Notes under the pieces: generated by a model
Databases searched by the model: none
What the model was told of the DNA's origin: nothing
Seen by the model: only the letters and a program-made list of their open reading frames with translations
Part shown: piece by piece, positions 61,227-62,342 of the stretch
Numbering within the stretch: position 1 is the stretch's first letter
How the letters are laid out: each line of letters opens with the position of its first letter
NCBI GenBank assembly: GCA_951812945.1
Contig: CATOTB010000001.1
Span: 393,976 to 457,975, forward strand
DNA from: Candidatus Dadabacteria bacterium
GTDB taxonomy: Bacteria > Desulfobacterota_D > UBA1144 > Nemesobacterales > Nemesobacteraceae
Length of the DNA: 64,000 nucleotides
Reading direction: 5' to 3'
Translations under genes and position numbers: made by a program

Positions 61227-62342
61227 ATGAGAATATTAATGCGAAATACGGTCTTTAAGACTGCGGCTCTTGCGGGTCTTTTTTCATGCCTGCTGGCGCT
61301 TGTTGTTGTTTTTTCCGGTACTACGGATCTTGTGCATGCCACCCATGACGAAACACCTGCTATAACGGCGGATCAAGTAGTAACCGAAGCTGACCTTGAA
61401 CAATTTGTGAAAGAGGCGGCTGATGCCTACTACATAGACTTTATCATGAAACATGAGTGTGACTTTAGTAGTATTGAAAGTCTTGAGATTCCGGGGGTCG
61501 GTACGTTTCCAGGGACGACGATTAATGGCTTTCTTCCAAACGCTGATACAGCCACGATAAAGAACTTCATACCTGCATTTGCTGATCTGGATATAGCGGA
61601 GTATTGTCCCCTTGATCAATCTTTTTTCGAGGATGTGTTTGGCAGGGTAGACGGAAATTGGAAGTCGGGTTCCATATATCTTTTCATTATGGATGATAAC
61701 GGAAACATGCTTTATCATGGGGTTGATCCAAATGCTGAGGGGGAGCGTGTGGTTGCCATGGACGGGGGCAAAAGGAATGTCAGGGAGTTAATCCTTGATG
61801 AGGCGGACACTCCCATGAACGACGGCATTGTTAAGTATTGCTGGGATGATCCGGCTACAGGCGATGACAATATAGACGATAACGATCCTGCAACAGCCCC
61901 TGGCGACTCTTTGAAAATTAGCTACGTTGTAGACCCCTTGGTATATTTGGGAATAAACCAACCCATGGGTTCTCCGGGTGTTATCTTCGGTTCCGGCATC
62001 TATCCGGGACCAGACCCCCAATACCCGGCATGTGACGGGAATGGAATGGCCGATGGCGGGGACGGAATGGAGCCGATGGAGCCGATGGAGCCGATGGAAC
62101 CGATGGAACCGATGGAGCCGATGGAGCCGATGGAACCGATGGAGCCGATGGAACCGATGGAACCGATGGAACCGATGGATCCCGAAATGGTCACTTCCGT
62201 TAGCGGCGGAGGTTGCGCAATTGCGGCGGGAAGCGACAGCACTCCTCGGAATAATGCGTTCAATCTGCTATTGATAGTGTCCGCCCTGCTTTTTACCGTA
62301 TCGTTCGGAAACCGTGCGATGGGCAGACGGAACAGGGATTAG
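61227..62342 (+). CDS. Secreted single-Cache (sCache_2-like) domain protein with (Met-Glu-Pro)n linker and C-terminal TM + Arg-rich sorting-signal-like tail
   Basis: Signal peptide with AHA-like cleavage (LVHA). Cache core GSIYLFIMDDNGNMLYHG...GERVV..DGGKRNVRELILDEAD...DGIVKYCWDDP......KISYV....VIFGSGIY. The linker is 11x MEP plus MDP. The tail reads GGGCAIAAG...AFNLLLIVSALLFTVSF-GNRAMGRRNRD. Confidence 0.6.
   Translation: MRILMRNTVFKTAALAGLFSCLLALVVVFSGTTDLVHATHDETPAITADQVVTEADLEQFVKEAADAYYIDFIMKHECDFSSIESLEIPGVGTFPGTTINGFLPNADTATIKNFIPAFADLDIAEYCPLDQSFFEDVFGRVDGNWKSGSIYLFIMDDNGNMLYHGVDPNAEGERVVAMDGGKRNVRELILDEADTPMNDGIVKYCWDDPATGDDNIDDNDPATAPGDSLKISYVVDPLVYLGINQPMGSPGVIFGSGIYPGPDPQYPACDGNGMADGGDGMEPMEPMEPMEPMEPMEPMEPMEPMEPMEPMEPMEPMDPEMVTSVSGGGCAIAAGSDSTPRNNAFNLLLIVSALLFTVSFGNRAMGRRNRD
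62067..62174 (+). repeat. Perfect-period 9-bp tandem repeat x12 (atggagccg/atggaaccg; last unit atggatccc), encoding (MEP)11-MDP
   Basis: Units were counted directly: 62067, 62076, ... 62166. Only synonymous GAG/GAA variation occurs between units. Confidence 0.95.

Follow-up and report, generated by a model that had tools for sequence, protein, structure and literature searches.

The stretch of DNA analysed here (the window, 64,000 nucleotides; contig CATOTB010000001.1 of GenBank assembly GCA_951812945.1, positions 393,976 to 457,975 of the forward strand) belongs to an uncultured marine Candidatus Dadabacteria bacterium and carries a gene for a 371-residue protein made up, from the N to the C terminus, of a signal-peptide-like segment, a single Cache ligand-binding domain, an acidic linker with a Met-Glu-Pro repeat and a tail that resembles a C-terminal sorting signal [Table 1]. 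The gene, hereafter the Cache gene, occupies a conserved gene order consisting of lon, hisG, murA, prmC, proC, yggT, an F420-type oxidoreductase gene, yjbQ, a gene encoding a 324-residue protein without Pfam assignment, the Cache gene and hsp20. The open reading frame (ORF) is as the initial annotation of this DNA had described it, and every motif quoted there is found in the protein (YLFIMDDNGNMLYHG, GERVV, GKRNVRELI, KYCWDDP, KISYV, VIFGSGIY). We lean, with moderate confidence, towards reading the product as a tethered Cache receptor that lacks a transmitter and is sorted by a variant of the myxosortase-type systems.

Table 1. Features of the Cache gene and its flanks, in positions of the window.
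Feature	Position	Strand	Basis or detail
Promoter-like element, CTTGACAG + 17 nt + TGTTTTAAT	61113..61143	+	Conserved in orthologous loci
Hairpin CCCGGC-GAGA-GTCGGG in the 5' untranslated region (5'-UTR), then the TTAAACTGAAC box	61168..61183	+	Stem-loop search
Ribosome-binding site AAGGAGG	61215..61221	+	Read from the sequence; conserved in orthologous loci
Complete ORF, 371 residues + stop	61227..62342	+	ATG start
Putative signal peptide, residues 1-38	61227..61340	+	MRILMRNTVFK, hydrophobic core, V-H-A followed by T
sCache_2-type ligand-binding domain, about residues 48-262	61368..62012	+	Pfam, AlphaFold2 (AF2), Foldseek, PDB profile
Acidic disordered linker, residues 260-328 (69 residues)	62004..62210	+	Predicted local distance difference test (pLDDT) 39-66; 18 Asp + Glu, no Lys or Arg
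Tandem repeat (ATGGARCCG) x 12.6, encoding (Met-Glu-Pro)12	62067..62179	+	Tandem Repeats Finder
C-terminal sorting-signal-like domain, residues 324-371	62196..62339	+	Tail-only hidden Markov model (HMM), 90.5 bits
Invariant Cys330 in CaaX-like C-A-I-A	62214..62225	+	Proposed modification/cleavage site, by analogy with MYXO-CTERM/MrtX
Hydrophobic transmembrane (TM) segment AFNLLLIVSALLFTVSF, residues 344-360 (17 residues)	62256..62306	+	Hydrophobicity and conservation
Basic cytoplasmic cluster GNRAMGRRNRD	62307..62339	+	Read from the sequence; R363 at least 90% conserved
Strong bidirectional intrinsic terminator	62437..62468		14-bp stem, 9 G-C pairs, T-run

An exact look-up of the protein sequence returned no record, and a search of 5.8e9 proteins yielded 134 relatives, about 100 of which are full-length orthologues (40-66% identity) sharing its architecture and length. 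Few of these relatives bear names, and those that do come from metagenome-assembled genomes of Candidatus Dadabacteria; the genome records in which the gene was found are labelled Candidatus Dadabacteria or, where NCBI lumps the groups, Thermodesulfobacteriota bacterium, and include several closed chromosomes of 1.5-2.4 Mb. Conservation is strongest in the region of the Cache pocket and in the tail, whose 48 residues are almost unchanged among orthologues while the linker varies widely. G329 and C330 of the tail are invariant across 65 aligned sequences, distant paralogues included, and conservation of this kind goes well beyond chance.

The Cache assignment made in the initial annotation stands, the profile match on which it depended being present together with a matching fold. 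Pfam places sCache_2 (PF17200) over residues 146-211 at 31.1 bits against a cut-off of 25, a partial match that spans profile positions 51-116 of 155, and dCache_2 (PF08269) over the same residues at 27.7 bits against a cut-off of 26.5. The AF2 model, which was built on the 65-sequence family alignment and has a mean pLDDT of 80.7 (above 90 over residues 40-270), shows a PAS-like fold with a long N-terminal helix (residues 54-77), a helical insert and a five-stranded beta-sheet (strands 153-156, 160-164, 201-206, 228-235 and 252-258). In a Foldseek comparison with the PDB, the top 11 matches are all sCache_2 ligand-binding domains of chemoreceptors, among them 4exo/2qhk, 5g4y, 4k08 and the urea sensor TlpB (E 5e-5 to 1.4e-3, probability 1.00, TM-score 0.45-0.62 normalised to the target), while Cachd1 (9eq6) is found among the weak matches. 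The family profile also recovers 4k08, 5g4y and 4exo from PDB sequences by sequence alone. Four conserved cysteines of the protein (C77, C127, C205 and C278) could form two disulfides.

The segment preceding the Cache domain reads as a basic n-region, a 20-residue hydrophobic core and a V-x-A site; in the 65-sequence alignment, conservation reaches at least 90% at L15, F19, L23, F29 and H37, and the AF2 model predicts a helix at residues 9-30. Of the cleavable signal peptide proposed initially, the segment and its V-H-A site are thus present, and from that site we infer cleavage by signal peptidase I after A38. An N-terminal lipobox ([LVI][ASTVI][GAS]C), for which L-F-S-C21 offers a loose fit, was rejected, as Cys21 sits inside the hydrophobic core and is replaced by Leu or Phe in several orthologues (P0075, P0084, P0101), the conserved site being V-H-A38. 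Together with the C-terminal TM segment and its inside-positive charges, the signal-peptide-like segment would give the Cache domain the extracytoplasmic location typical of sCache_2. Pfam and NCBIfam scans found no domain besides Cache in the protein, as is explained by the mere 11 residues that follow its last hydrophobic segment, and the absence of a signalling output that had been remarked upon extends to the approximately 100 orthologues, which match it in length and layout. Fusion to signalling modules is seen in more than 90% of Cache domains, stand-alone ones being unusual (PMC12889525); it is typical of sCache_2 members without defining them, and the protein under study departs from it.

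The 12-unit Met-Glu-Pro repeat reported within the linker was confirmed by Tandem Repeats Finder (period 9, 12.6 copies, 95% matches, score 184, consensus ATGGAACCG), and its 9-bp unit preserves the reading frame when the copy number changes. Among 79 orthologues compared, the linkers are 21-82 residues long, rich in Gly, Glu, Pro, Asp and Met, and wholly divergent in sequence, with (MEP)n, (EPEPM)n, (PEPTD)n, (MEEE)n, (DGDDM)n and PPTT as examples. They are always acidic and rich in Gly and Pro, often Met-rich, and devoid of Lys and Arg; Met accounts for 10% and Asp + Glu for about 29% of their residues on average, and 58 of the 79 contain at least three Met. M-x-x-M spacing was observed in many of them. 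In some database homologues (P0076, P0083 and P0086) the frame is lost within the repetitive linker, and the tail with it (for example ...MVTEMATEMVTEM... and ...WMATEWMATAM...), whether through faulty assembly or sequencing of the repeat or through genuine frameshifts.

The tail, SVSGGGCAIAAGSDSTPRNNAFNLLLIVSALLFTVSFGNRAMGRRNRD in the window protein, follows a general plan of an acidic/Gly run, the motif G-C-A-[IV]-A, a polar spacer, a short TM helix of the FNLLL type and a cluster of Arg and Lys. Residues 329-343 comprise G-C330-A-I-A-A-G and a polar S-D-S-T-P-R-N-N stretch; in the helix that comes next, N346, L347, L348, L349 and L354 are at least 90% conserved, and the AF2 model places a helix at residues 342-367. 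Across 251 unique tails the Cys is present in 100%, preceded by Gly in 90% and followed by Ala at +1 in 81%, by Ile, Val or Leu at +2 in 95% and by Ala at +3 in 81%; Asp is frequent at -2 and -3, and the Cys is always single, GCGC never being found. C-A-I-A is built like the CaaX box of eukaryotes, except that it is internal. A stretch of 11-16 polar residues that include Asp, Arg and Pro (13 residues in the window protein) separates the Cys from the hydrophobic core, a D/S-T-P sequence often occurring at about +7 to +10 after the Cys without being invariant, and the core is followed by 4-15 residues that are rich in Arg and Lys in most carriers. The Gly/Cys motif, TM helix and Arg cluster from which a sorting signal was first proposed are therefore all present, whereas the 13-residue polar spacer is unlike the compact signals of exosortases and rhombosortases, in which the motif abuts the TM helix.

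Evidence that this tail is a module of its own comes from related genomes rather than from the window, in which the Cache ORF is the sole carrier. A homologue search of matched length with the tail alignment retrieved only fragments of fewer than 100 residues, and an exhaustive search was used instead, in which a tail-only profile (alignment A1) was run over the complete set of 1.84e9 cluster representatives. It identified 169 representatives at E <= 1e-3 and 33 at E <= 1e-10, nearly always with the tail at the extreme C terminus. Single-linkage clustering of the carrier bodies lumped all of them through multidomain links and was replaced by analysis of direct hits and Pfam assignments. Cache-type proteins of different sizes make up about two thirds of the carriers, and the rest are without similarity to the Cache body. 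By Pfam, the latter include proteins with leucine-rich repeats (LRR), some also with SRCR or fn3 domains (P0239, P0251, P0245, P0267, P0255, P0182, P0265 and P0229); others carry Calx-beta/PKD domains (P0264, P0213 and the products of two tandem genes in locus L018) or fn3 (P0253). Carriers may occur together: contig ctg717446l (2,275,767 bp) holds two of them (P0084 and P0111), locus L004 has two tandem LRR carriers, and L008, L010, L011, L015, L018 and L019 each have two within 20 kb. A search of the genomes with a strict tail pattern returned 12 loci, approximately one per genome, of which 11 encode Cache-type proteins, mostly the orthologue, and one (L018) a Calx-beta/PKD protein. The tail is thus not unique to the protein, contrary to the case in which the initial annotation would have had it be a simple anchor. 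Since the same module is found on unrelated secreted proteins, the tail is, on the strength of these comparisons, a modular sorting signal by operational definition and not a private anchor.

We note that some carriers of about 850-890 residues (loci L008:407-2962, L015:91-2643 and L011:2196-4694; proteins P0142, P0146 and P0148) contain two complete preproteins in one ORF, that is, a signal peptide, a Cache domain, an acidic linker and a Cys tail with TM helix and basic loop, followed by a second full set whose signal peptide has an A-x-A site. If signal peptidase and sortase both cut these products, two surface proteins would arise from a single ORF. A similar internal MYXO-CTERM signal is found in MXAN_5598 (PMC11980579).

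The class to which the signal belongs was approached through NCBIfam (release of June 2026; scans to E <= 10). Neither the whole window protein nor its isolated tail matched any C-terminal sorting model even at this threshold, and no match fell in the tail region of ten other carriers, so that the tail fits under no existing name. When 32 diverse tails were scanned singly, the matches were weak and sub-threshold; those with sorting-domain models were to MYXO-CTERM in 6 of the 32 (best E 0.036), to JDVT-CTERM in three (best E 0.034), and to CGP-CTERM, Synerg-CTERM and a sortase-B-target model (E 0.069) in one each, whereas PEP-CTERM, GlyGly-CTERM and PGF-CTERM matched none of the 32 at E <= 10. 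MYXO-CTERM, JDVT-CTERM, CGP-CTERM and Synerg-CTERM proteins are processed by CPBP/Rce1-like intramembrane glutamic proteases known as myxosortases (Haft, 10.1101/2023.06.07.544157), one of which, MrtX, cleaves MYXO-CTERM in a Cys-dependent manner, also in E. coli (Guo, Haft and Wall, PMC11980579). In the working model for MYXO-CTERM, Sec export and anchoring by the C-terminal helix are followed by lipidation of the Cys by an unidentified enzyme, cleavage distal to the Cys and transfer to the cell surface that depends on the type II secretion system (PMC11980579). Of the three classes suggested in the initial annotation, the MYXO-CTERM/myxosortase type is accordingly supported and the exosortase and rhombosortase types are not. 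The best reading of these matches is that the tail would represent a new lineage-specific variant of the myxosortase-type signals rather than a member of a described family.

A candidate for the cognate enzyme was found in related dadabacterial genomes. In locus L004 (positions 7973-8578), two genes away from P0239 and its tandem LRR partner, lies a gene for a 201-residue CPBP protein (PF02517, an assignment recorded for all of its homologues) with the catalytic motifs EExxxR, FxxxH and HxxxN in the forms PEEFFFR, FAVAH and HFAAN. Its best NCBIfam models are MrtP (76 bits) and NF040914 Mrt_core (72.7 bits, cut-off 100), with MrtS, MrtC, MrtX and MrtJ also among them, as compared with at most 38 bits for generic CPBP models, and four further orthologues, down to 39% identity, rank the models in the same way. 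Over these orthologues the scores are 64-73 bits for Mrt_core (cut-off 100), 68-78 for MrtP (250) and 58-65 for MrtS (130). The CPBP family is 73-100% identical across most dadabacterial matches, occupies a conserved housekeeping position (gltB-(birA)-CPBP-nadE), and, when contigs are matched by length, is found together with tail carriers on five of them (2,275,767, 1,523,597, 1,513,048, 2,441,076 and 825,371 bp). A housekeeping locus unlinked to its clients agrees with Haft's expectation for a sortase that serves many of them. The presence of a myxosortase-like CPBP protein in genomes that carry the tail is suggestive of a link between the two, not conclusive. Around the CPBP gene, we also observed that the birA-gltB region of L004 (5611-7820) is a variable island with AbiEi/AbiEii toxin-antitoxin genes and the two LRR carriers, that transposase genes (DDE_Tnp_1, IS66) and a DruA-like gene surround it in L005/L006, and that the FG-GAP protein encoded beside it in L021-L023 has no tail.

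By analogy with the MYXO-CTERM model, the precursor would be exported by the Sec pathway and held in the inner membrane by its C-terminal helix, Cys330 would be modified, presumably by lipidation, and the 201-residue CPBP/Rce1-like intramembrane glutamic protease would cut just after the Cys, freeing a TM/Arg peptide (residues 331-371). The mature protein, tethered by lipid through its new C-terminal Cys, would probably be moved to the cell surface, and the Cache domain, raised above the membrane by a flexible acidic stalk, might there bind a small ligand. It would then serve to capture or present that ligand, or assist a distinct partner as its co-receptor, and would not transduce signals across the membrane; a disordered stalk cannot pass on piston or helix movements, and the domain would therefore act as a tethered binding protein. 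The protein may be surface-displayed or released, as proposed in the initial annotation. The window encodes autotransporters and an outer membrane protein (OMP) beta-barrel, from which the organism can be taken to be diderm.

The main alternative, improbable in our view and still to be reckoned with, is that the C-terminal helix is a plain anchor that is never removed, leaving a bitopic inner-membrane protein (or one with two TM helices if the signal peptide is uncleaved) with a periplasmic Cache domain, in which G-C-A-I-A would serve disulfide dimerisation, S-acylation without cleavage, or docking of a partner sensor. Several findings that weigh against sorting by a myxosortase-type system speak for such an anchor. 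A TM segment followed by a basic cluster is the generic stop-transfer layout, and the 64-kb window encodes no sortase-like protein nor any other multi-pass membrane protein. In the signals described for intramembrane proteases the motif directly adjoins the TM helix (10.1101/2023.06.07.544157), unlike the tail, where a long spacer of 11-16 polar, often charged residues separates Cys and TM helix. The link to the CPBP protein is circumstantial: its scores lie below every curated myxosortase cut-off, so that membership of that family is not established, and it adjoins carriers in one genome only, inside the variable island, its neighbours elsewhere being birA, nadE and gltB; as the adjacency is not conserved, the neighbourhood is weak evidence. 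In M. xanthus, moreover, an uncleaved fraction of a MYXO-CTERM protein is still functional (PMC11980579). Also to be counted against the sorting reading are the spread of the tail, part of which reflects paralogy because about two thirds of its carriers are Cache-type, and other CPBP paralogues, exosortases or rhombosortases that dadabacterial genomes may encode beyond the loci inspected. A plain anchor, however, needs no invariant Cys in a fixed CaaX-like context and gives no account of one 45-residue module placed at the extreme C terminus of unrelated LRR, Calx-beta, fn3 and Cache proteins; the weak matches to sorting models are almost all to Cys-type signals, and a myxosortase-like CPBP protein is conserved in the same genomes. 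The G-G-G directly before the Cys of the window protein could instead be taken for a recognition site of a rhomboid- or exosortase-family enzyme that removes the tail, as in GlyGly-CTERM sorting, and a 238-residue rhomboid-family gene does lie two genes from the 420-residue Cache paralogue P0111 (L002:12513-13229, minus strand). We regard this as very unlikely, the 32 tails having given no GlyGly-CTERM or PEP-CTERM match, their positions -2 and -3 often being Asp and their Cys invariant, and no PEP motif being present. The rhomboid was rejected as a rhombosortase: it scores 17.6 bits against a cut-off of 84 and about the same against GlpG, is convergent and sits in a pfk operon, and is probably a general rhomboid. 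No exosortase was seen in the loci inspected, the whole genomes not having been searched for one.

The remaining alternatives concern the body of the protein. A hydrophobic N terminus, a Cache domain and a second hydrophobic segment resemble the sensor part of a receptor, and output modules are attached to more than 90% of Cache domains (PMC12889525); the gene might be what is left of a histidine kinase or chemoreceptor (TM1-Cache-TM2) after loss of the cytoplasmic module, and be without a function in itself. This we find hardly credible, since some 100 orthologues of the same length have retained the promoter-like element, 5'-UTR, ribosome-binding site, terminator and synteny, the Cache domain and the TM segment are joined by a disordered acidic stalk and not by a continuous signalling helix, a conserved cleavage site of the A-x-A type follows the N-terminal helix, and the tail is also found on proteins that are not sensors. 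Its orthologues, synteny and upstream signals mark the gene as functional and as transcribed on its own, not as the relic of a sensor. Met motifs that bind Cu(I) occur in Ctr1 or CopC-type proteins. A stalk rich in Met, Glu, Asp and Pro might likewise be the working part of the protein, an array of Met motifs binding Cu(I) or other cations to which the Cache domain would be accessory; the M-x-x-M periodicity of (MEP)12 and the Met and acidic content of the 79 linkers (at least three Met in 58, 10% Met and about 29% Asp + Glu on average) are in keeping with this idea. We nonetheless think it unlikely, given that neither the sequence nor the length of the linker is conserved, that some linkers, of the (PEPTD)n or PPTT kind, are free of Met, that a short run of Asp is all that is found in the more remote carriers, and that strong conservation is confined to the Cache pocket region and the tail.

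The flanking signals themselves are as follows. The promoter-like element is nearly invariant across 10 orthologous upstream regions; its function as a promoter is inferred from this conservation, and a consensus promoter scanner did not call it because its -10 hexamer is non-canonical. The 5'-UTR hairpin is conserved in orthologues with some compensatory changes (a C-G or T-A closing pair, G-T or G-C), and no family in an Rfam scan of the gene and its flanks fits it. A role for the hairpin, with the T-run before the ribosome-binding site, as an attenuator or terminator was rejected; the T-run is not conserved in orthologues, and the element is therefore better termed a 5'-UTR stem-loop. The leader as a whole (61113-61226), including the TTAAACTGAAC box and the ribosome-binding site, is almost invariant in the ten loci and could have a regulatory or stabilising role. 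Downstream, the terminator is common to the Cache gene and the convergent Hsp20 gene (62474-62893, minus strand); an Rfam match to L20_leader at 62366-62477, over the terminator hairpin, reached 29.4 bits against a gathering score of 58.7 and was taken as chance. Elsewhere in the window, a 443-residue protein with the Fic motif HPFFDGNGRTAR is encoded between yggT and the F420-type oxidoreductase gene (57272-58603) and looks like an insertion, as locus L001, syntenic in other respects, lacks it. Eukaryote-like or surface proteins are encoded at 475-3027, 3202-5655, 42324-44267 and 10250-11158, and comprise SRCR with cadherin repeats, three fn3 domains with an autotransporter beta-domain, a GDSL-lipase autotransporter and the OMP beta-barrel; none has the Cys tail. 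This set is reminiscent of the surface proteins of symbionts associated with a host (sponges).

There is nothing unusual about the Cache domain itself, and we found no paper in the literature that links Dadabacteria with Cache domains or with C-terminal sorting. Three elements would be new. The signal would be a distinct one of the Cys type, marked by its spacer and its internal CaaX-like motif; the myxosortase-like enzyme would be minimal and belong to a phylum new to such systems; and the putative sorting system would be used chiefly for tethering Cache domains without output. Cys-type signals with myxosortases were defined between 2023 and 2025 for Myxococcota, some Pseudomonadota, Synergistota and Thermococcales. 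A fifth distinct signal of this type, in an uncultured phylum, would extend the myxosortase system, and the dadabacterial tail would be a natural variant for asking whether recognition by the protease depends on the helix or on the residues that follow the Cys. The tail HMM offers a practical means of annotating the dadabacterial surface proteome. A paralogous family of envelope-tethered Cache domains further suggests that the fold also serves as a surface binding protein, which affects how counts of "sensors" in streamlined and symbiotic genomes are to be read. Sponge-associated dadabacterial lineages have many eukaryote-like proteins of the LRR, SRCR, cadherin and fn3 kinds. We put forward only tentatively, and with some doubt, the broader proposal that Dadabacteria, these lineages included, possess an uncatalogued "internal CaaX" pathway in which G-C-A-I-A would be lipid-modified and cut by a minimal 201-residue Rce1-like protease, and whose main cargo would be an expanded surface repertoire of Cache receptors without transmitters, on acidic stalks. 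Were this the case, bacteria would have a counterpart of the lipid-anchored Cache proteins of animals (alpha2-delta/Cachd1) for nutrient capture or for recognition of a host or partner and not for signal transduction of the classical kind, and some of its members would be made as two-in-one polyproteins parted by signal peptidase and sortase.

Among known Cache proteins, the sCache_2 domains of chemoreceptors (4exo/2qhk of Vibrio parahaemolyticus, 5g4y PscD, 4k08 Adeh_3718 and 3ub8 TlpB) share with the window protein their fold, their extracytoplasmic location and a series of motifs (Y-[LF]-[FW]-[IV]-x-D, an H-G/P turn, Y-x-W, K-x-S-Y-V and G-S-G-[IV]-Y). They sit between two TM helices of a signalling protein, whereas the window protein has no transmitter, carries a disordered stalk before its TM segment and possesses an extra helical insert of about 60 residues (80-140). 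In the carboxylate sensors 4k08 and 5g4y the pocket motif reads Y-x-W-P-K-P, as compared with Y-C-W-D-D-P in the window protein (61833-61854, residues 203-209 being K-Y-C-W-D-D-P), where it is strongly conserved within the family. The chemistry of the pocket, and with it the class of ligand, may thus differ from that of carboxylate sensors, and the replacement of Lys by Asp hints at a non-carboxylate, possibly cationic ligand. Stand-alone sCache_heme proteins are likewise periplasmic single Cache domains without signalling modules (PMC12889525); they carry a CXXCH site for c-type haem and no C-terminal sorting tail, the opposite of what is found here. A haem-Cache reading was rejected, CXXCH being absent from the window protein. 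The eukaryotic alpha2-delta and Cachd1 proteins contain Cache domains, are extracellular, are anchored by lipid or a single TM helix, have no enzymatic output and act through partners. The likeness is functional, a Cache domain being brought to the cell surface by way of a C-terminal hydrophobic signal or anchor, and does not amount to orthology, their architecture being double-Cache plus VWA and their anchoring by glycosylphosphatidylinositol or TM helix.

Among known sorting systems, PEP-CTERM/exosortase (TIGR02595/PF09721) finds neither its motif nor a model match in the tail, which also falls outside GlyGly-CTERM/rhombosortase (TIGR03501/TIGR03902) and JDVT-CTERM (NF033191) as these families are defined. 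MYXO-CTERM (TIGR03901; MrtX/MrtC/MrtP, NF040593/4, NF040674) has in common with the dadabacterial tail its C-terminal position, an invariant Cys preceded by Gly, a TM helix with a basic cluster, a disordered region upstream, many unrelated clients that include surface proteins of the LRR, fn3 and Calx-beta types, an enzyme (for the dadabacterial tail, the candidate CPBP protein) encoded by a "housekeeping" gene unlinked to its clients, and occasional internal copies that arise by gene fusion. The dadabacterial tail differs in having no TIGR03901 match in the window protein and weak ones in six of the 32 tails, a single Cys that is never GCGC, the CaaX-like A-[IV]-A, a charged, Pro-containing spacer of 11-16 residues and a conserved FNLLL start to its TM helix; MYXO-CTERM, for its part, often has GCGC, lacks Pro and charged residues between its motif and the adjoining TM helix, and is restricted to Myxococcota, whereas the carrier genomes here are those of Candidatus Dadabacteria or Thermodesulfobacteriota bacterium. 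JDVT-CTERM of Pseudomonadota, with its enzyme MrtJ (NF033192), is closest in layout, combining a single invariant Cys, a similar length, a Leu-rich TM helix and a CPBP-family partner with a DP at +9 after the Cys, close to where D/S-T-P often stands in the dadabacterial tail. It typically has one client per genome, adjoining MrtJ, whereas the dadabacterial tail is found on many clients and its candidate enzyme is encoded in a housekeeping locus.

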